64,000 bases of DNA from sequence record MK573636, one strand, 5' to 3'. The DNA comes from Escherichia phage vB_EcoM_PHB13. Under the pieces are notes generated by a model that worked only from the letters and a program-made list of their open reading frames with translations, was not told where the DNA came from and ran no database searches. Shown here in pieces: positions 20,268-30,953 of the stretch (positions within the stretch are counted from its first letter, which is position 1; each line of letters begins with the position of its first letter). The position numbers were made by a program, and so were the translations under genes.

Positions 20268-20553
20268 GACTATCATTAACCTTGTTATGTGGACTTTCAA
20301 TTTCGTTATTGTTATTATGGCGGGTATTGAGATTGTCAAGCAGTATCTGTTACAATCCAGAAATAAACATGTTGTAATTGATATGGACTCTCAAGGAAAT
20401 AAGCTGATCCGGTTAGAAGATGGTCGGGAATATTGGGTAGGTTATCCAAAGACACTACGCGGATTTATCTTTGCTATGGGTGTTTGCTTCTTTTTCCTTT
20501 GTATCTGGACTTATATCGGTTTAGGTCTTGTTGGATTTTTGGAGATTAATTAA
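20260..20553 (+). CDS. small membrane protein
   Basis: 97 aa with two TM segments; start overlaps the upstream stop, and its end overlaps the tk start (ATGGCG at 20553). Confidence 0.4.
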   Translation: MLETIINLVMWTFNFVIVIMAGIEIVKQYLLQSRNKHVVIDMDSQGNKLIRLEDGREYWVGYPKTLRGFIFAMGVCFFFLCIWTYIGLGLVGFLEIN

Positions 20554-21149
20554 TGGCGCAATTATATTTCTACTATGCATCTATGAACGCTGGCAAATCA
20601 ACTTCTCTGTTACAAAGTGCTTATAACTATACCGAACGTGATATGCGAGTATTAATTCTTAAGCCAGCGATTGATAATCGAGATTCAGAAAGTGAAGTCG
20701 TTTCCCGAATTGGCCTAAGTGTCCCAGCGATCACCTTCACTAAATCTGATGATCTTTTCGATTTGGTTTATCGTGAATCGTTAGGTAAGCGTAGACCGGA
20801 TCGATGGCGTCCAGATGCAGTTTTTGTAGACGAAGCCCAATTTATGACTAAAGAGCATGTTTTAGGCTTGTGTGCGCTTGTTGATGATGCTAATATCCCT
20901 GTACTGTGCTATGGCCTTCGCACTGACTTTCAGGGCAATCTATTTGAAGGATCTGCGGCATTAATGGCATTTGCTGATAAACTGGTCGAAATGAAGGGTA
21001 TTTGTCATTGTGGCAAGAAAGCGACTATGGTCCTTCGCGTAGATAAAGATGGTAATGTTATTCGCGATGGTGCTCAAATAGAAGTTGGTGCAGAGGATAA
21101 ATATGTTTCTGTGTGTCGTAAACATTTTATTGATGGTACTACCAAATAA
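20553..21149 (+). CDS. tk: thymidine kinase
   Basis: 198 aa; P-loop (ASMNAGKST) and C-terminal zinc ribbon (CHCGKKAT...CRKHF) of type II thymidine kinases; T4 tk position. Confidence 0.9.
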   Translation: MAQLYFYYASMNAGKSTSLLQSAYNYTERDMRVLILKPAIDNRDSESEVVSRIGLSVPAITFTKSDDLFDLVYRESLGKRRPDRWRPDAVFVDEAQFMTKEHVLGLCALVDDANIPVLCYGLRTDFQGNLFEGSAALMAFADKLVEMKGICHCGKKATMVLRVDKDGNVIRDGAQIEVGAEDKYVSVCRKHFIDGTTK

Positions 21150-21176: not shown

Positions 21177-21184
21177 TATAAATA
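21177..21184 (+). promoter_or_regulatory. T4-type late promoter motif TATAAATA upstream of the rI-like gene
   Basis: Exact TATAAATA about 34 bp upstream of the ATG at 21218. Confidence 0.45.
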
Positions 21185-21217
21185 TAACTGAATATTTTCA
21201 ATCTGGGGGAATGACTT

Positions 21218-21520
21218 ATGTCATTTATTCGTAAAACTCTAACAGCGGCAATATGCTTGACTGCGGTCGGAAGTGTCAGTGCTGATCAATATGATCCAAC
21301 TGGTGACTTTACTGATTATTTCGACGGCGCAATGATAGTATATGTAAACAAAATATCTCCTTCCATTGAAACCAGCCAGAAATTTCATGCCCATATTATG
21401 AAGATGTATGCTCGTAGTAAATGTATGGATTCTAGGCAGTGTTTTATTATGGGGGGATATGCCGCACAACAATTTGTTCTGTTGCATAATATGGAGAATC
21501 GAGAACATGAAATTCAGTGA
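21218..21520 (+). CDS. rI: lysis inhibition regulator RI-like periplasmic protein (antiholin)
   Basis: 100 aa with N-terminal signal-anchor sequence and a two-Cys C-terminal domain; directly after tk, as rI is in T4 (97 aa). Confidence 0.5.
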   Translation: MSFIRKTLTAAICLTAVGSVSADQYDPTGDFTDYFDGAMIVYVNKISPSIETSQKFHAHIMKMYARSKCMDSRQCFIMGGYAAQQFVLLHNMENREHEIQ

Positions 21521-21905
21521 TTTTCTAAAGACTTCCGAAGAGGGAAAGGCTAATAAAGTTGACCGCTTTATCGGTGAATGTCTGATGAGTGTTACTTATA
21601 TGCATTCTGCGCATTTTGGGGTAACTGGTCCTGGATCTTATGCAAAACATAAGGCTCTAGAAGAGTTCTATCTTGAAATGCAAGAATTGGTTGATAATTT
21701 CACTGAAACCAATATTGGGATCACTGGTCGTTATCAGCCAAAGTTGGTCGTCCGCAAGGAGATTAGCGAAATTGCCTATTTGCAAGAGTTAACGCAAATG
21801 GCTAGTGAGATTTATAATGATGTTGATAGCTCGTTACAGAGTGTTTTAGACGATATCAAAGCTCTATGCTTTAAAACAATTTATAAACTCACTCGACTGG
21901 CTTAA
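21507..21905 (+). CDS. hypothetical protein (rI.-1 position)
   Basis: About 133 aa from the ATG overlapping the rI-like stop. Confidence 0.4.
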   Translation: MKFSDFLKTSEEGKANKVDRFIGECLMSVTYMHSAHFGVTGPGSYAKHKALEEFYLEMQELVDNFTETNIGITGRYQPKLVVRKEISEIAYLQELTQMASEIYNDVDSSLQSVLDDIKALCFKTIYKLTRLA

Positions 21906-22139
21906 TGTTAGTCACCGTGGGATGCATACCATAAGTAAAAGAATACTAGCATTAACACAACTATTTGGCTTCCTCATAATTTCGCGTGTTCAATTACTGC
22001 CGAATCGGAAGACCCGTCTAAGACGAGGAAGGGTTATCATTGGAAAGGGATGGTGAATTGGTTACTATGTTTAACTAGTTTAGCAAAGGTCGATTCAAAC
22101 ACTACTATACAAATGGACGTGAATAAAATATAATCAAAA

Positions 22140-22164
22140 GCCATCCGAAAGGGTGGCTTTTTTG
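22140..22164 (+). terminator. intrinsic terminator
   Basis: GCCATCCGAAAGGGTGGC hairpin plus TTTTTT. Confidence 0.65.
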
Positions 22165-22174
22165 TTTTTAGGTG

Positions 22175-22203
22175 TTGACAACCGGAATAGTGTATAGCAT
22201 AAT
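22175..22203 (+). promoter_or_regulatory. sigma70-type early promoter cassette
   Basis: TTGACA-N17-CATAAT followed by GCACACATCGACAACAAAGGAGAATCAAAA-ATG. Confidence 0.6.
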
Positions 22204-22233
22204 GCACACATCGACAACAAAGGAGAATCAAAA

Positions 22234-22449
22234 ATGATTAATCCAGTAGCGGCAGCACTTGCTTCCGAAGAAACTTTGAAGTATATGGTAGAACATGCAG
22301 CAAAGAAAGGAGAAATTGTTACTGCCGATGAGATCGTAGAAACCATGCTCCGCGATCCGAATGGTAACACTGCAAAGTTTTTCGGTGATCATCTTAAACT
22401 GGCTTACAAAACAATTATGGAGACCGTGAAAAAATGCAAAATGATGTGA
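22234..22449 (+). CDS. hypothetical early protein
   Basis: 71 aa behind a promoter cassette. Confidence 0.45.
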   Translation: MINPVAAALASEETLKYMVEHAAKKGEIVTADEIVETMLRDPNGNTAKFFGDHLKLAYKTIMETVKKCKMM

Positions 22450-22772
22450 TTGAAGTTATTATGAATCAATACCGAAACCGGATTTGGTCTGGACGTATCA
22501 AAGAAGAAAAGGCAAAACGGATCATCGAAAAATATGCTGAAAAGACTAAGCAAGCGCCAACGGCTAACAGAGTTATGATTCTTAAATGTCTGGTGCTTTC
22601 CGGTGACGATATGCCTATTGATGCAGAGACAGCCACCGATTTTCATAAGACCTATCGCCAGTGTGATGTAATTTTTACTTCTGGCTTCGGTAGTTATGAC
22701 TCTATTATGTGGAATTTAATGCACCTTGACGCAACGATCTGGGATGTACTTTCGGAGGAGGGTTACAAATGA
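22434..22772 (+). CDS. hypothetical protein
   Basis: 112 aa ORF overlapping its neighbours. Confidence 0.4.
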   Translation: MQNDVIEVIMNQYRNRIWSGRIKEEKAKRIIEKYAEKTKQAPTANRVMILKCLVLSGDDMPIDAETATDFHKTYRQCDVIFTSGFGSYDSIMWNLMHLDATIWDVLSEEGYK

Positions 22773-23119
22773 ACATTGACATTCAACGACTAATTGATCA
22801 CCTTCACGCGGGAATACCTTATCATGGCGACGTTACCCGTGATATTCTTGATGTGTTGGAATATACCAAGCAAGTGATCAACGAAAAGCAAGCATTAGAA
22901 TCATGGATCGACGAGGCAATAGGAAACATTGCAACCGAAGATGAATTAGATAATCACTTTGGACCTGTTCTTGATGCTCTTATGGCTGCGCGTGATACCA
23001 AACTGAAACAGGATAAACAAGAATTTATCCTTGATGGTTTAGCTCGTTATCACAATGCAATTGATATTATGAATAACCAGCATGATTATGCTATTAGTGT
23101 TTTGCGAGGTCTGGCATGA
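22769..23119 (+). CDS. hypothetical protein
   Basis: 116 aa; ATGA overlap with the upstream gene. Confidence 0.4.
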   Translation: MNIDIQRLIDHLHAGIPYHGDVTRDILDVLEYTKQVINEKQALESWIDEAIGNIATEDELDNHFGPVLDALMAARDTKLKQDKQEFILDGLARYHNAIDIMNNQHDYAISVLRGLA

Positions 23120-23400
23120 AAGACACAAACGAATTTAACTGTATTCAGGTAAGCCCGAATTTTATTGTTCCATCACTGGTGACTAAGCTGAATGGTCATA
23201 TGGTCGCTTTGTCTTCCACACCGCCAGAATCAGGAAAGTTTATTACTATCGTAGTTTATGCGGGGCAAATTTTCTCTCATGATTGCTGCATGAAAAATGG
23301 TCAGTTGATGGTTGCAAATTATGACTACGGCGACCTTGAATGGGAAGTTTTAGGACTGGCTAAAGGCGCTGAAATTCTGGGCTATATTCGATTAATTTAA
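23116..23400 (+). CDS. hypothetical protein
   Basis: 94 aa; ATGA overlap. Confidence 0.4.
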   Translation: MKDTNEFNCIQVSPNFIVPSLVTKLNGHMVALSSTPPESGKFITIVVYAGQIFSHDCCMKNGQLMVANYDYGDLEWEVLGLAKGAEILGYIRLI

Positions 23401-23418
23401 ATTTTTTCTTAGAAAGTG

Positions 23419-23447
23419 TTGACAGCGATCCGGTGTCATTGCATAAT
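23419..23447 (+). promoter_or_regulatory. sigma70-type early promoter cassette
   Basis: TTGACA-N17-CATAAT followed by ACACCCATCGAAACGAGATAC...AGGAGAATCAAAA-ATG. Confidence 0.6.
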
Positions 23448-23488
23448 ACACCCATCGAAACGAGATACACTTTCTAGGAGAATCAAAA

Positions 23489-23710
23489 ATGGCAACTGTT
23501 AAAATTATCAAATCTTCCGCTGGTTTCGGTTTCATGCGTGGAGCTAAGTACCCGATGATTATTGAAAACGTTGCCATCGAAGATGGTATGGCTAAAGTGA
23601 CCAGCCGTCAATTGTTCGAAGCTGGTGTTAAAACTGCTGAATCATGGGCGCTTCGTTACCCAAACAAAACTTGGTCTTTCTTCCTGAATGGAGAAGCAGA
23701 GGTCATCTAA
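23489..23710 (+). CDS. small protein, KIEII/GVKLPII family member
   Basis: 73 aa; KIIKSSAGFGFMRGAKYPMIIE resembles the N-termini of ORFs at 26061, 26277 and 26534. Confidence 0.45.
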   Translation: MATVKIIKSSAGFGFMRGAKYPMIIENVAIEDGMAKVTSRQLFEAGVKTAESWALRYPNKTWSFFLNGEAEVI

Positions 23711-23728
23711 GTAATATTATTAATCAAT

Positions 23729-23750
23729 GCCCCTTAATTGGGGCTTTTCT
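23729..23750 (+). terminator. intrinsic terminator
   Basis: GCCCCTTAATTGGGGC hairpin plus T-rich tail. Confidence 0.5.
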
Positions 23751-23764
23751 TGTGAGGAAATTTT

Positions 23765-24544
23765 ATGGCAATATCTTCTGGATGGGTAGGATCATCTGCT
23801 GTGTCCGAGACTGGTCAACGGTGGATGAGTGCCGCAATGGAAGCTGTACGCTTAGGTCGTCCGGCGTATATGTCAGCAATGGTCGGACGTTCTAAAGAGA
23901 TTCATTATAGCATTGGTGCTAGTAACTCTTACAATAAAGATACGCTTATTAACTGGATGAAAGCACAAGGATCTACTCCGGTAGTAATTACTATCACAGG
24001 TAATATTGTTTCCCAATCTACTGGCGTTCCTTGTCTTGACTTCCCTAGCTCGTTAACAAACGAATATGTAACATTGATCATTAACTCCGGTGTTCATGTT
24101 TGGGGGCGTGGTGGTAATGGTGGCAATAACTCCGCTGGTGGTGCTGGTGGTAATGCAATTAACAACGGTATAGGCACACGCTTACGCATCACAAATAACG
24201 GTGTTATCGCAGGCGGTGGCGGTGGCGGTGGTGGCGGATATTATTCTCCTACGAAACCAATGAAATTAACCTTTGGTGGTGGCGGCGGTCGTCCATTTGG
24301 TGCTGCTGGTGGGTCTGCTAATATGGAACGGGGTGCTACTGCTGGTACTATTTCCGCGCCAGGTAAAGGGTCTGTCAACGGTGTATATAATGGCGGTAAC
24401 GGTGGTGATGCTGGCGGTGCTGGTGGTAAATGTAATATCCGTGGACAGGGATCGGAATATAATGGCGGTGCGGCTGGTAAGGCTGTTACTGGCAATGCCC
24501 CTCGCTGGGATAAAGTAGGCACGATCTACGGTGCTCGCGTGTAA
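23765..24544 (+). CDS. glycine-rich protein with gp38-adhesin-like polyglycine motifs
   Basis: 259 aa; about 110 aa N-terminal domain, then GGNGGNN, GGAGG, a run of nine Gly, GGGGG and GGNGGDAGGAGG segments resembling the glycine-rich motifs of T2-type gp38 adhesins and colicin translocation domains. Confidence 0.5.
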   Translation: MAISSGWVGSSAVSETGQRWMSAAMEAVRLGRPAYMSAMVGRSKEIHYSIGASNSYNKDTLINWMKAQGSTPVVITITGNIVSQSTGVPCLDFPSSLTNEYVTLIINSGVHVWGRGGNGGNNSAGGAGGNAINNGIGTRLRITNNGVIAGGGGGGGGGYYSPTKPMKLTFGGGGGRPFGAAGGSANMERGATAGTISAPGKGSVNGVYNGGNGGDAGGAGGKCNIRGQGSEYNGGAAGKAVTGNAPRWDKVGTIYGARV

Positions 24545-24550
24545 TTTTAT

Positions 24551-24587
24551 GGGCTATCCTTCGGGATAGCCTTTTTGTTTTTTGGGT
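24551..24587 (+). terminator. intrinsic terminator
   Basis: GGGCTATCCTTCGGGATAGCC hairpin plus T-tract. Confidence 0.65.
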
Positions 24588-24588
24588 G

Positions 24589-24616
24589 TTGACAATGAAA
24601 ATCATAGTGCTATAAT
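24589..24616 (+). promoter_or_regulatory. sigma70-type early promoter cassette
   Basis: TTGACA-N16-TATAAT followed by GCACACATACCAACTAAGGAGAATCAAAG-ATG. Confidence 0.6.
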
Positions 24617-24645: not shown

Positions 24646-24936
24646 ATGACCGCTGAACAATTAATCAAACATATCCGCAACATTATTTGGGATCTGTCTG
24701 GTGATAAAGAGGAACAGGCTGAACGCATTTTAGCTAAACTCTATGAGCGCCGTGACCGTGGAGTATCCGTAAAGAAAGTAGAAACTTTCAAAGAGTTATC
24801 TTTCATCGAAGCTAAAAAGGATGGATTAATTTATCAGTTGACAGATGGTTACTGGTGCTATGATAATACTCGCTATGACACCGCGACTGATGCATTAAAA
24901 GCATGTAATGACCATCTTCGCAAAACTACAATTTGA
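24646..24936 (+). CDS. hypothetical early protein
   Basis: 96 aa behind a promoter cassette. Confidence 0.45.
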   Translation: MTAEQLIKHIRNIIWDLSGDKEEQAERILAKLYERRDRGVSVKKVETFKELSFIEAKKDGLIYQLTDGYWCYDNTRYDTATDALKACNDHLRKTTI

Positions 24937-24946
24937 GGATTATATT

Positions 24947-25144
24947 ATGAAGGTTAAAACATTGGCTGATATGGATGAGATCGAGACTCAAGTACATGCG
25001 GCGCTAGTCGGTTATGAGTTTGGTCGATTCCTTAATAAGTTCCATGATTATAAATGCTTAAATTGTGGTGCTCATAACGTAATTGGTGCTTGCTGTATTA
25101 ATCCTGTTATAGTACCATATAAAAGAAATGAAACAGAAGAGTGA
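24947..25144 (+). CDS. Cys-rich small protein
   Basis: About 65 aa from GAGGATTATATT-ATG; CxxC and CC motifs. Confidence 0.4.
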   Translation: MKVKTLADMDEIETQVHAALVGYEFGRFLNKFHDYKCLNCGAHNVIGACCINPVIVPYKRNETEE

Positions 25145-25154
25145 GGAATATAGA

Positions 25155-25412
25155 ATGAATGCCAACGAACAAGTAATACCGCCACCTTTCGGTCGCATTC
25201 CTATAGTTATCACAAAGTCAAATATGTCTTTCGTTGAGGTTGGTGAGCGTACACACATAACAACGATGCACGGAAAACAGTATATTTGGTCATCTTTCTG
25301 TAAATCGTATGAGCTTTTAAGCTGGGCGATTGATGTATGGAAAATTGAATATGAAGTAATTACAGAAGAGAGAGGAATACAAAATGAAAAAGTTGATGGC
25401 TACATTTCATGA
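25155..25412 (+). CDS. small paralogous protein
   Basis: About 85 aa; ITKSNMSFVEVGERTHITTM...SWAIDVWKIEYEVITEE duplicated in the next ORF. Confidence 0.45.
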   Translation: MNANEQVIPPPFGRIPIVITKSNMSFVEVGERTHITTMHGKQYIWSSFCKSYELLSWAIDVWKIEYEVITEERGIQNEKVDGYIS

Positions 25413-25474: not shown

Positions 25475-25819
25475 ATGACGGTTATCATGATATTCTGTTC
25501 ATTAAAAAATACTGAGTTTATCCGCTTAGGCGCTAAACCTGCTGTGCTATACCCAGAAGGAAACCGGACAGCGGTCAGAAAAACAAATTCTGTTAAATTG
25601 TCATTTAGTTCAGATGTTGGCTTGGAACCCGCTTTCGGATATACTCCGGTCGAGATCACAAAATCGAATACTTCTTTCGTGAAAGTTGGAGAGAAAACGC
25701 ATATTTCAACTATGCCGAACGGTGCACAATATCTATGGTCCGATTTCTGCCAGCGTTATGAGCGTTTATCATGGGCTACCCGCTTATGGTGTGTTGAGTA
25801 TAAGGAGATCACAAAATGA
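25475..25819 (+). CDS. small paralogous protein
   Basis: Paralog of 25155 (EITKSNTSFVKVGEKTHISTM...SWATRLWCVEYKEITK); start uncertain. Confidence 0.4.
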   Translation: MTVIMIFCSLKNTEFIRLGAKPAVLYPEGNRTAVRKTNSVKLSFSSDVGLEPAFGYTPVEITKSNTSFVKVGEKTHISTMPNGAQYLWSDFCQRYERLSWATRLWCVEYKEITK

Positions 25820-26064
25820 TCACCGGATATATTCCATATTCAACGACAAAACACATTATCGGATTTGAAGACATAGAAAAGTCTTGCTTTCCTCTCAAGG
25901 TTGAAGTAGACTTTATTACAGCGAACGGATGGGCTTACGTCACTGTTTCAGAAATGAAGCGAGTGGGGTGGGAAAACTGCATACACCTACCGCATCTTAT
26001 CCTAGATGTTCGCGCTGGTGAAATTGATATTGCTGGAAAGATCTATGGAGATAATGTAACATGA
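25816..26064 (+). CDS. hypothetical protein
   Basis: 82 aa; ATGA overlap. Confidence 0.4.
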   Translation: MITGYIPYSTTKHIIGFEDIEKSCFPLKVEVDFITANGWAYVTVSEMKRVGWENCIHLPHLILDVRAGEIDIAGKIYGDNVT

Positions 26065-26258
26065 AAATTGAAATTATTGATGACGGTGGATTTTCTTTCA
26101 TGAATGGCGTTAAACTTCCTATTATCGTGGAAGGTCGTCGGTATGGGCTTGATTATCTTGTAGAAACGCAGGAACTACAAAAAGCTGGAGTGCCGATTAA
26201 AGGTTATTTTCCTGAGTATGAATGGTGTTTTCGTGCCAATGAAGCATGGGTAGTGTAA
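26061..26258 (+). CDS. small protein, KIEII/GVKLPII family
   Basis: 65 aa (MKIEIIDDGGFSFMNGVKLPIIVEG...YEWCF). Confidence 0.45.
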   Translation: MKIEIIDDGGFSFMNGVKLPIIVEGRRYGLDYLVETQELQKAGVPIKGYFPEYEWCFRANEAWVV

Positions 26259-26276
26259 CTAATTGAGGATTATATT

Positions 26277-26534
26277 ATGAAGATTGAAATTATTAGTGAT
26301 GCCGATTATTCTTTCTTGAAAGGTGTTAAACTTCCGATCATTGTTAGAGGAACTCCCTTCTATGATAGTTTTTTGGTAACGACCAAAGAATTACGCAAAG
26401 CTGGCGTTTCCTTTGAGGGAATTTACAATGATGATTATGAATGGTGTTTCTTGGATAGATTTGCCCGTAAAGCAGAAAAAGCACGAAAAGAATCATGCTT
26501 TGCTCGCTTTAATAACTGGTTGAGGAAGCTGTAA
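26277..26534 (+). CDS. small protein, KIEII/GVKLPII family
   Basis: 85 aa (MKIEIISDADYSFLKGVKLPIIVRG...YEWCF), tandem paralog. Confidence 0.45.
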   Translation: MKIEIISDADYSFLKGVKLPIIVRGTPFYDSFLVTTKELRKAGVSFEGIYNDDYEWCFLDRFARKAEKARKESCFARFNNWLRKL

Positions 26535-26872
26535 TGAACGAACCGAAAATGTATTTGTTGCTGAATGATTCAGGATACACCTTCTTACAAGGTGTCGAAA
26601 GTGATTCCCGTCCGATTGTATATGGCAAGGAGCATCCGACCATTCCTGGGATCATTCTTGTTACGACAAGATCACTTCGTCGAGTGTCGGAAAGCCCATA
26701 CCTACAAAACGTAAAGCAAGACCGAGAATGGGCTTTCGAGTTGGGTAAAGACCTTGTTGAATGGGTAAACTGTGAAGACAAGAACCAAAGAAATCATGAA
26801 AAGAAGATTGCACGACTTGAACATAGAAGAAAACTTGATGAAATCAAAAACAGGATTCTACAATCAATGTAA
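26534..26872 (+). CDS. small protein, KIEII/GVKLPII family (divergent)
   Basis: 112 aa (..DSGYTFLQGVESDSRPIVYG...REWAF). Confidence 0.4.
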   Translation: MNEPKMYLLLNDSGYTFLQGVESDSRPIVYGKEHPTIPGIILVTTRSLRRVSESPYLQNVKQDREWAFELGKDLVEWVNCEDKNQRNHEKKIARLEHRRKLDEIKNRILQSM

Positions 26873-28973: not shown

Positions 28974-29405
28974 ATGGTTTATCCAACTCCTAGTAAGATT
29001 TACATTGATGATACCCATTTTATGGTTGATATGATGGGTATAAAGTTTAGTGGTATTGTTAAAATTGTAGAATGGGAATTGCACGGTCAACCTGTCACTG
29101 ACTATGACCATTACATTCCTTTTTTGGGTGATGACAATTTTGTCTCGTTTGACCATGAAGGTTACATGATCTTTGAACAGTCTGACGTACCGACCTATCT
29201 GGCAATGATGCAAATTCCTACGAAGGTTTCTGTTGCTGAGGGTGATTGCGATTGCTGCGGTTGGTATAGTGTAACAGATATTAAGTTGCCATCCGGTAAA
29301 GAACTCTATAACGAAGACCATTTTGGAAACTGCAACTTTCCGTGTGATTGGGATGAATTTTTCGAACTGGTAGAAACTGAAAGAACTTATTTAAGGAAGG
29401 GATAA
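28974..29405 (+). CDS. hypothetical Cys-rich protein
   Basis: 143 aa; CDCC and CNFPC motifs. Confidence 0.4.
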   Translation: MVYPTPSKIYIDDTHFMVDMMGIKFSGIVKIVEWELHGQPVTDYDHYIPFLGDDNFVSFDHEGYMIFEQSDVPTYLAMMQIPTKVSVAEGDCDCCGWYSVTDIKLPSGKELYNEDHFGNCNFPCDWDEFFELVETERTYLRKG

Positions 29406-30220
29406 TGAAGAAAGCATTAGGTTTAATTCCCTATACTGGCAATAAGGAAAAGTTATTGCCTGGTGTTAGTAAGTATTTCCCTAAGCACTACAACCGCTTT
29501 GTTGATGCCTTTTGTGGTGGTTTGAGCGTGTCTCTGTATGTTGAAGGTGATGTGCTGGCTAATGACTATGATCACCGTTTAATTGACGCTTACAAGGCCA
29601 TTGATGCGTGTCCTGACCCAGTTTCTACGATCAAGCGGATTATTGCCGAGAATGGTTTGTCTCGCGATGATAAAGATGCTTACATGGCATTCCGCAAGAA
29701 GTATAACGAGAATCCAGATCCGCTATCTCTGTTTGTGTTGATTCAACATAGTTTTAGCAACATTAACCGCCATAACCGGAAGGGCGAATTTAATGCTAAT
29801 TTTGGTCGCCGGACTTTTAACGAAAACGCGGTAGAGCGTGTCCTGAATTTTAAGGAAGAAAACAAAGACGGTCGAATCAGTTTTACGTCTGGACGATATG
29901 ACGAGATCGAGATCTTGCCGGATGATTTCGTTTTCCTTGATCCGCCATATTGGATCACGTCGGCAGAATATAATAAGTTCTGGAGTGAAGAAGAAGAGAT
30001 TAAATTCTACATGTGGATAGAATCATTAATGTCTAGCGGTGCTAAGTTTGGATTAAGCAATGTTACTCACCACAAAGGGAAAGTTAACAACCATCTGCTC
30101 GATTTTATCGAACGTAATGATGTTTCTGTTGTTGAACTGGATAAAACATATTGTTTAGATCGTAGCGGGGGTAAAAAATCCGATACTAAGGAAGTTTATG
30201 TCACCAATGTTAAAATATGA
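29405..30220 (+). CDS. dam: DNA adenine methyltransferase (Dam-like, N6-A MTase)
   Basis: 271 aa; N-terminal AdoMet motif (FVDAFCGGLSV) and catalytic DPPY (FLDPPYW), typical of T4 Dam / GATC MTases. Confidence 0.85.
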   Translation: MKKALGLIPYTGNKEKLLPGVSKYFPKHYNRFVDAFCGGLSVSLYVEGDVLANDYDHRLIDAYKAIDACPDPVSTIKRIIAENGLSRDDKDAYMAFRKKYNENPDPLSLFVLIQHSFSNINRHNRKGEFNANFGRRTFNENAVERVLNFKEENKDGRISFTSGRYDEIEILPDDFVFLDPPYWITSAEYNKFWSEEEEIKFYMWIESLMSSGAKFGLSNVTHHKGKVNNHLLDFIERNDVSVVELDKTYCLDRSGGKKSDTKEVYVTNVKI

Positions 30221-30953
30221 GGTTATACACAAGACTCCAGAAGATAAACGTTTATATGATTTATATCATTCACGGTTTTATTATGATGATGGTTTTCTTA
30301 GGTGGAAGATTCACCCGCACCGAAAAGGTGTTATAAACGGATTAGCTGGAAGTGATACCCCCGATGGGTATCGTATTGTATGGACTGGCGAGCGATACGA
30401 ACGTATGCACCGTGTTATCTATCATATGTTTCATGGTCATTGTCCTAAGTATATAGATCATAAAGACCGAGATCGTTATAATAGCCGCATTGAAAACCTT
30501 AGAGAGACGACAAGCAAACAAAATAATATGAATATGAGCAAGACCAAATGCAAAACATATTCGAAGTATAAAGGTGTGTCGTTTAATAAGAATAAAGGTT
30601 ATTGGACTGGTGCAATAATGTTGGATGGGAAGTCGATACATTTAGGATATTTTCCCTCTGAGATCGGTGCGGCGTATGCATATAATCTTGCAGCGTTGAA
30701 ACATTTTGGTGATAGGTATTGTATAAACGAGATTGATGATATAGAATATGCAAAGTCTGAATATGGCAAGAAGCTCCAAAAAGCAGCAAGTTCCCGTCAT
30801 AGATACGTTTACAAAGTACCAAAACAAGGTAATTACGGTGCTAAAGTTCGCGGTGTGTATATAGGAAGATTTGACACAGAAGATGATGCGGCACGGGCAG
30901 TTAATGCCTATATTATTGAAAATGAACTTGATATAGAACTGAATGAGGTATAA
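30198..30953 (+). CDS. HNH-AP2 homing endonuclease
   Basis: 251 aa; HNH_3-type motif (IDHKDRDRYNSRIENLRETTSKQNNMN) followed by two AP2-like DNA-binding domains (YKGVSFNKNKGYWTGAI..., NYGAKVRGVYIGRFDTEDDAARAVNAYI). Start overlaps the last 23 nt of dam. Confidence 0.75.
   Translation: MSPMLKYEVIHKTPEDKRLYDLYHSRFYYDDGFLRWKIHPHRKGVINGLAGSDTPDGYRIVWTGERYERMHRVIYHMFHGHCPKYIDHKDRDRYNSRIENLRETTSKQNNMNMSKTKCKTYSKYKGVSFNKNKGYWTGAIMLDGKSIHLGYFPSEIGAAYAYNLAALKHFGDRYCINEIDDIEYAKSEYGKKLQKAASSRHRYVYKVPKQGNYGAKVRGVYIGRFDTEDDAARAVNAYIIENELDIELNEV

Follow-up and report, generated by a model that had tools for sequence, protein, structure and literature searches.

Does the glycine-rich open reading frame (ORF) between rI and dam of Escherichia phage vB_EcoM_PHB13 encode a receptor-binding adhesin stranded outside the tail-fibre module, and does its polyglycine tract change length by slippage? 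Both points were raised in a preliminary description of the window, the 64-kb stretch (64,000 nt of record MK573636) analysed here. We addressed them through the identity and fold of the protein, its genomic position and mosaic structure, the conservation of the glycine tract and the likely expression of the gene.

Results

Gene 38 and its product

The ORF, its ribosome-binding site and its longer glycine run are as follows.

23754-23757, plus strand: Shine-Dalgarno (SD) sequence GAGG, read from the sequence, 7 nt 5' of the gene 38 ATG
23765-24544, plus strand: gene 38, long-tail-fibre adhesin (receptor-recognising protein), ATG start, 259 aa
24212-24238, plus strand: nine-Gly run, residues 150-158, part of a conserved glycine-rich motif

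The 259-aa ORF with polyglycine blocks is present as first described, with Gly making up 34% of residues 113-259 versus 9% of residues 1-112. The nine-Gly run is encoded by GGC GGT GGC GGT GGC GGT GGT GGC GGA, and a second run of five Gly lies at 24275-24289. A repeat had been placed at 24207-24240; it exists, in a slightly narrower span, as Tandem Repeats Finder returned (GGCGGT)x3.3 with 100% matches at 24212-24231.

The ORF at 23765-24544 is, with high confidence, a full-length T2/T6/S16-type gp38, the adhesin that sits as a monomer on the tip of each long tail fibre of a Krischvirus phage. Pfam GP38 (PF05268) matches with an E-value of 1.2e-72 (244.7 bits against a cut-off of 25) over positions 1-218 of its 218-position profile, and Gp38_N (PF21721) is covered end to end (E 6.4e-18, 64.9 bits against a cut-off of 25). 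Among PHROG families, phrog_2056 (‘tail fiber protein; host specificity’) matches with an E-value of 1.4e-101, and structures of known adhesins are recovered at the sequence level: PDB 6F45_D, gp38 of Salmonella phage S16 (E 3.9e-49, aligned over residues 1-257), and PDB 9V85, the receptor-binding domain of PP01 gp38 (E 2.4e-31). The identical 259-aa protein is deposited as QBQ74164.1, gp38 of Escherichia phage vB_EcoM_PHB13.

The comparison with gp38 adhesin structures proposed in the preliminary description agrees with these matches. An AlphaFold2 model built from an alignment with 47 homologues reached a mean pLDDT of 92.5 and a pTM of 0.83, and Foldseek against the PDB retrieved 6F45_D (E 2.2e-22, TM 0.81/0.84) and 9V85_C (TM 0.87); beyond the S16 and PP01 gp38 structures, the next match in that search had an E-value above 5. 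The guess of a T2-type gp38 adhesin was correct. Its companion, a likeness to the glycine-rich translocation domains of colicins, was rejected, there being no Pfam match to such a domain and no sequence or fold match in the PDB except gp38.

In the 47-sequence alignment, 26 of the 43 invariant columns are Gly, and the conserved blocks GRGGNGG, G9, GGGGGRPFG and GGxGG alternate with variable stretches. This alternation of glycine-rich motifs and hypervariable segments (HVS) is the architecture described by Trojet 2011 and in a 2025 paper. Identity and fold, like the genomic context, mosaicism and conserved Gly-run length reported below, are observations; the adhesin function is taken over from published work on orthologues. 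Mutants of RB49 that grow on a resistant strain have E230K in the orthologous gp38, alone or together with Y231S, and for other gp38s swaps support a role in receptor determination (2026 preprint).

A displaced position that is normal for the genus

Over 2.5 kb around gene 38 the window is 98% identical in DNA to Krischvirus vB_EcoM_011D4 and 92-97% identical to RB49, Phi1, JSE, GEC-3S and others; it is a Krischvirus (RB49-like) genome. The gene lies between the following landmarks.

20553-21149: tk, upstream of gene 38
21218-21520: rI homologue, identified by comparing its position and length with the GEC-3S, Phi1 and RB49 annotations
29405-30220: dam, downstream of gene 38

gp38 genes usually, though not by definition, lie directly 3' of gene 37, and this one does not. 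A tblastn search of the 64 kb returned no homologue of gp34, gp36, gp37 or holin and no second gp38, and gene order places the locus outside the tail-fibre module, between rI and dam, as the preliminary description had it. What did not hold is that this is an anomaly of one genome. The gene at the equivalent position is annotated ‘38’ in Phi1 and RB49, the tail-fibre module of Phi1 reads 34-35-36-37-ORF252-t without a gene 38, and gp38 is single-copy in the window and in each relative checked. About 43 of 58 Krischvirus records share the rI-dam location, which is part of the early hyperplastic region. Displacement of gene 38 in RB49-like phages was stated by Trojet 2011, a 2026 preprint gives a distance of about 55 kb between gp38 and gp37 for five Krischvirus phages, and the 2025 paper notes that both arrangements occur within the genus. 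The position is therefore normal for the genus, already annotated and already in the literature.

A mosaic adhesin with a T6-class specificity module

Comparison with Krischvirus and T-even homologues divides the protein into three parts.

23765-24091, plus strand: Krischvirus-type scaffold, residues 1-109, with the gp37-attachment domain (1-44) and the first part of the beta-helix
24092-24472, plus strand: internal specificity module, residues 110-236, of the T6/slur04 class, not the RB49 class
24473-24541, plus strand: Krischvirus-type C-terminal end, residues 237-259, which rejoins the beta-helix domain

The two outer parts are 93-100% identical to RB49, Phi1 and GEC-3S. Against T6, FL15 and FL20, identity is 59-66% over residues 1-44 and 34-38% over residues 45-109; the C-terminal end is 100% identical to RB49 and GEC-3S, and 48-65% to FL15 and T6. 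The internal module follows another pattern: its identity is 94% with both GEC-3S and Tequatrovirus slur04, 77% with T6 and 72% with RB49; its DNA is 43-80% identical to RB49 and, in places, 81-93% to slur04. Within it, HVS2-4 have the same lengths as, and are 77-78% identical to, those of the Tsx-dependent adhesins of FL15 and of T6, whose receptor is Tsx; against the OmpA-dependent adhesins of RB49 and FL20, identity is 62-63% and loop lengths differ. The first breakpoint falls just 5' of the first glycine-rich motif, in keeping with reports that recombination occurs at these motifs (Trojet 2011).

The Tsx dependence of FL15 gp38 and the OmpA dependence of RB49 and FL20 gp38 are experimental results from the literature. 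From the T6-like lengths and identity of HVS2-4, we predict with moderate confidence that the receptor is Tsx, rather than that the protein has the OmpA/O-antigen specificity of RB49. Two points bear on this prediction: single substitutions can switch gp38 receptors (2026 preprint), and no other member of the protein's cluster has the HVS2 residues TKP.

Cassette boundaries and the empty site

Gene 38 is flanked by a conserved set of elements.

23489-23710, plus strand: small ORF of 73 aa directly upstream, homologue of Phi1 ORF080 (phrog_7345, unknown function)
23729-23744, plus strand: G+C hairpin of 5 bp with a 6-nt loop, followed by TTTTCTT; a weak terminator or attenuator, annotated as a terminator in GEC-3S
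24551-24572, plus strand: strong intrinsic terminator with a 9-bp stem, UUCG loop and T-run (z -2.3), annotated in GEC-3S
24589-24616, plus strand: perfect sigma-70 early promoter, TTGACA-16-TATAAT with TG, 12/12 matches, serving the ORF at 24646-24936

Hairpin, SD, gene 38, strong terminator and early promoter form a cassette of about 880 nt on the early-gene strand. The stop codon of ORF080, which has paralogues at 26061, 26277 and 26534, marks its left boundary; the promoter at 24589-24616 together with the terminator makes up, at its right boundary, an element like the promoter-early stem-loops (PeSLs) of Arbiol 2010. The terminator at 24551-24572 would end the gene-38 transcription unit. 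The flanking hairpin, terminator and promoter are common to all occupied-site relatives.

FL20 shows what the site looks like without the gene. Its ORF080 stop is directly followed by a single promoter/stem-loop element, TTGACA cggggagaaatccccg TATAAT, in which the stem-loop lies inside the promoter spacer, and homology to the window restarts at the -10 box. By this junction, the unit from 23711 to about 24588 is exactly absent in FL20. A 401-nt empty-site probe found 58 Krischvirus records; the empty site is uninterrupted in 13 of them (about 14 with FL04, counted as empty for its match to the first 300 nt, where the record ends), and in about 43 the two halves of the probe are split by the insert. 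In phiS, ORF080 is absent as well. In the three empty-site phages examined (FL20, FL15 and G2494), gp38 adjoins gene 37 and has a T2/T6-type N-terminal half. Over its distal 300 residues FL15 gp37 shows no relationship to Phi1 gp37, and the chaperone domain of FL20 gp37 is 65% identical to that of Phi1 and 45% to that of slur04. These comparisons suggest that one tail-fibre tip module was replaced by another, in either direction. With gp38 beside gene 37 and an unrelated distal gp37 in FL15, the genus holds two alternative tip systems.

A further-reaching reading would make this host-range determinant a self-contained, early-expressed cassette with stem-loops and a promoter at its borders. It could leave the genome, be lost or be swapped in one piece, perhaps by way of PeSL mini-circles and independently of the tail-fibre module, and would be mutually exclusive with the T-even-type pair of gp37 tip and gp38 at the canonical site. 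The exact absence of the unit from about 14 of 58 genomes and the unrelated distal part of FL15 gp37 fit such a reading; the same data are equally explained if the tail-fibre tip was replaced and the cassette then simply deleted, and we regard the cassette-exchange reading as unlikely.

The nine-Gly tract is structural

The polyglycine tract had been described as slippage-prone, and in its strongest form this would make it a contingency repeat, in which frequent gain or loss of GGN codons alters the adhesin and switches host range. A perfect (GGCGGT)3.3 does exist, and in-frame variants occur in public data. The closest relative, 011D4 (a deposited complete genome), has ten Gly, P0128 has seven, P0004 has six and is otherwise identical to P0002, and P0019 has four; the last two are deletions within the run, each from a single-member cluster on one Logan-assembly contig. 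Each variant of 4-7 Gly is a single sequence from an assembly, either Logan or labelled E. coli, and could reflect a defective gene or an assembly error.

Conservation of the run argues against a switch. Codons differ at most positions among six relatives compared at the DNA level, yet five of the six keep nine Gly with differing mixtures of GGC, GGT, GGA and GGG, 011D4 being the exception; nine residues kept despite such codon turnover point to selection on length. Run lengths were counted in protein clusters, as the glycine-rich patterns are too degenerate for the viral-contig collection (1 and 2 loci). Among the full-length members of four 90% clusters, 49 of 50 have nine Gly, and the remaining one has seven. 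Across the family, too, nine is the commonest length, shown by 57 of 105 cluster representatives, T6 included; lengths of 8, 7, 6 and 4 are less common, and arise partly by substitution rather than indel. In-frame indels in the tract thus occur, but they are rare and do not persist. Deletion of glycine-rich motifs abolishes T6 gp38 function (Trojet 2011), and the motifs are at once the structural core of the fold (2025 paper) and known recombination sites (Trojet 2011). A contingency locus is a long perfect repeat whose length differs among close relatives; here there are just 3.3 hexamer units, nearly always encoding the same number of residues. The nine-Gly tract is structural, not a contingency locus; frequent switching by slippage is very unlikely, and the earlier claim is weak.

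The same composition accounts for a second ORF on the opposite strand.

24241-24522, minus strand: antisense Pro-rich ORF, 93 aa, GTG start, 30% Pro

It has no match in Pfam or PHROG, and every homologue likewise has antisense reading frames that stay open over 54-111 codons, and not in a single frame alone. Such frames are expected, since GGN-rich coding DNA rarely holds the complements of stop codons. A coding role was rejected on these grounds, and the ORF, as had been proposed, is an artefact, here ascribed to the composition of GGN-rich coding DNA.

Early-type expression signals

The nearest recognisable promoter able to serve gene 38 lies before ORF080.

23419-23447, plus strand: sigma-70-type early promoter, TTGACA-17-CATAAT, 11/12 matches, annotated at the same place in GEC-3S

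The sole exact TATAAATA late promoter on the plus strand within several kb is at 21177, before rI. With up to one mismatch allowed, a plus-strand scan of 21184-23765 yielded just TATGAATA at 23068, which lies inside an ORF and was not counted as a late promoter, so no late promoter was found within 2.6 kb upstream of gene 38. In RB49, too, the nearest predicted late promoter upstream of gene 38 is that of rI (Pl:48756; Nolan 2006); with scan and prediction in agreement, a hidden late promoter was rejected. The possibility that the upstream hairpin hides the SD, as in T4 gene e, was rejected too (fold z -0.19; the centroid leaves the SD unpaired). We infer from the signals present that gene 38 is probably co-transcribed with ORF080 from the early promoter through the weak hairpin, and that long late transcripts starting at the rI promoter may contribute. 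For a virion protein, which has to be made at the right time, the absence of a late promoter close by is a difficulty. Our literature search found no Krischvirus transcriptome paper and no paper on phage PHB13.

These signals could be read as pointing to an early, intracellular role in addition to or instead of adhesion, for instance as a receptor-directed superinfection-exclusion or decoy factor: the nearest upstream promoter (23419-23447) is of sigma-70 type, no late promoter lies within 2.6 kb, and the gene sits on the early-gene strand, bracketed by terminators. Against this, it encodes the sole gp38 of these genomes, and a gp37 of such type needs one; host-range genetics favour a virion role, adhesin families alone match, with no sequence sign of export or another activity, and six copies per virion suffice, so that weak or early expression, or read-through, may be enough. 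We consider an early role extremely unlikely.

The product names ‘distal long tail fiber assembly catalyst’ and ‘tail assembly protein’ in the RB49, JSE, GEC-3S, JEP8 and PHB13 records would make the protein a tail-fibre assembly chaperone of the T4 gp38/lambda Tfa type, absent from the virion, a notion of negligible probability that sequence and fold refute: Pfam gives just GP38 and Gp38_N, with no tail-assembly-chaperone family, PHROG matches are to tail-fibre/adhesin families, no fold other than that of the S16 and PP01 adhesins was matched, the T2/T6-type adhesin has no relation to T4 gp38 (Trojet 2011), RB49 host-range mutations map to the orthologue, and gp37 of RB49-like phages has its own self-cleaving chaperone domain (cited literature).

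Discussion

Gene 38 is thus real but ordinary: a known adhesin, experimentally supported via its orthologue, in the usual location of its genus. Its mode of action can be proposed from solved relatives. Through its N-terminal domain the gp38 monomer is held on the gp37 tip (S16 structure, after the 2025 paper; Trojet 2011). The middle and C-terminal end form a beta-helix, and the glycine-rich motifs a three-layer polyglycine-II sandwich (S16 structure; 2025 paper), from which the HVS project as receptor-binding loops (2025 paper; Trojet 2011). By homology with S16, T2 and T6 gp38, residues 1 to about 44 would dock on the tip of the gp37 trimer, and the middle and extreme C-terminus would fold into a small beta-helix. 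Residues ~110-236 would form the sandwich, with the glycine-rich motifs, including the nine-Gly run, packed as its structural core; since such motifs form the sandwich, the polyglycine blocks are best read as the core of the fold. The hypervariable segments between them would be the exposed loops that bind the outer-membrane receptor. The glycine-coding repeats would accordingly serve structure and provide homology for recombinational loop swapping, not a slippage switch.

Correct annotation matters for phage therapy and receptor prediction, gp38 being the main host-range determinant of most T-even-like phages. Many database records mislabel the gene as ‘assembly catalyst’, ‘tail assembly protein’ or ‘hypothetical protein’; in the window the adhesin is present and intact. 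Our additions to what was known are small: the cassette boundaries, the occupancy count, the mosaic with its Tsx prediction and the absence of a nearby late promoter.

Comparison with known systems

The closest counterparts are the gp38 proteins of GEC-3S and 011D4, which are 94-97% identical to the gene 38 protein throughout. RB49, Phi1, JSE and GEC-3S carry gp38 at the same rI-dam locus with the same flanking hairpin, terminator and promoter. RB49/Phi1 gp38 differs in the specificity module (72% identity for RB49, 43-80% at the DNA level) and in loop lengths.

T6 and Krischvirus FL15 gp38 present the converse. They share with the gene 38 protein the loop motifs YYSPxxxM[KR]LTF and CNIRGQGSEY and the nine Gly, whereas their N-terminal and beta-helix parts are of T-even type (34-61% identity) and their genes, unlike gene 38 here, lie between gene 37 and holin.

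S16 gp38 (6F45_D) and PP01 gp38 (9V85) share the three-domain fold of attachment domain, beta-helix and polyglycine-II sandwich, with TM values of 0.81-0.87 and 41-43% identity to the gene 38 protein. Their hypervariable loops are unlike those found here, and S16 has eight Gly at the position of the nine-Gly run. The S16 and PP01 gp38 genes adjoin gene 37.

In its layout, the gene-38 cassette resembles the PeSL cassettes of RB49 and Phi1 (Arbiol 2010), which likewise lie in the hyperplastic region. The downstream boundary is alike, combining a strong consensus sigma-70 promoter, a G/C stem-loop and an SD sequence. As with gene 38, PeSL cassettes are present in some phages and missing from others closely related to them, and the empty site keeps one PeSL. 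The upstream boundary differs, being here a stem-loop without a promoter, and so does the cargo, an ORFan in the PeSL cassettes and an essential virion gene in this one; gene 38 is not mentioned in Arbiol 2010.

Arrangement and surroundings of gene 38

The locus of gene 38, encoding the long-tail-fibre adhesin gp38, occurs in three arrangements within Krischvirus:

State 1: ORF080-g38-ORF078, in the window
State 2: ORF080-ORF078, in FL20 (L009 8128-8188) and 12-13 other genomes
State 3: ORF081-ORF078, with ORF080 missing as well, in phiS (L010 3927-4014)

ORF080 adjoins gene 38 upstream and has short paralogues dispersed within the same hyperplastic region of the window (blastp E 2e-6 to 5e-21; identity 32-59%):

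23489-23710, +, small ORF directly upstream of gene 38; phrog_7345, a PHROG without assigned function
26061-26258, short ORF of this family
26277-26534, short ORF of this family
26534-26872, short ORF of this family

Another pair of paralogues lies in this early region:

25128-25412, ORF neighbouring 25475-25819
25475-25819, ORF neighbouring 25128-25412

Over 80 aa the two are 50% identical (E 1e-26) and, being both adjacent and paralogous, are a tandem duplication. Farther downstream, a 251-aa ORF (30198-30953) overlaps the end of dam, lies upstream of nrdC and is the counterpart of a GEC-3S gene annotated as an HNH homing endonuclease. Phi1 lacks this counterpart, with nrdC directly after dam, and the ORF looks like a mobile insertion. 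Just upstream of rI stands the canonical late promoter TATAAATA (21177-21184, +), which agrees with Pl:48756, a late promoter predicted in RB49 (Nolan 2006). This part of the window has no other exact copy of the motif on its + strand.

Variation and exchange of the adhesin

The HVS2 loop (24239-24274; gp38 residues 159-170) directly follows the nine-Gly run and differs even among members of one 90% protein cluster: the window carries YYSPTKPMKLTF, and other sequences carry YWSPFPQMKLTF, YYSPFSQMRLTF, YYSPMPQMKLTF and YYSPTPQMKLTF. The TKP version was seen in the window sequence only. This loop is probably a host-range hot spot.

Database records label gene-38 orthologues variously as 'distal long tail fiber assembly catalyst', 'tail assembly protein', 'tail fiber protein' or 'hypothetical protein'. 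Certain copies come from assemblies that bear the label E. coli, Bacillus cereus or Bacillus atrophaeus, and these probably represent phage DNA in bacterial sequencing runs.

In the Tequatrovirus slur04, the adhesin gene 38 (L004 3980-4765) occupies a different position from that in the window. Its product has a T-even-type N-terminus, 66% identical to the window protein, and beta-helix and specificity parts 92-94% identical to those of this Krischvirus protein. The comparison shows exchange of gene-38 sequence across the two genera despite the differing gene positions.
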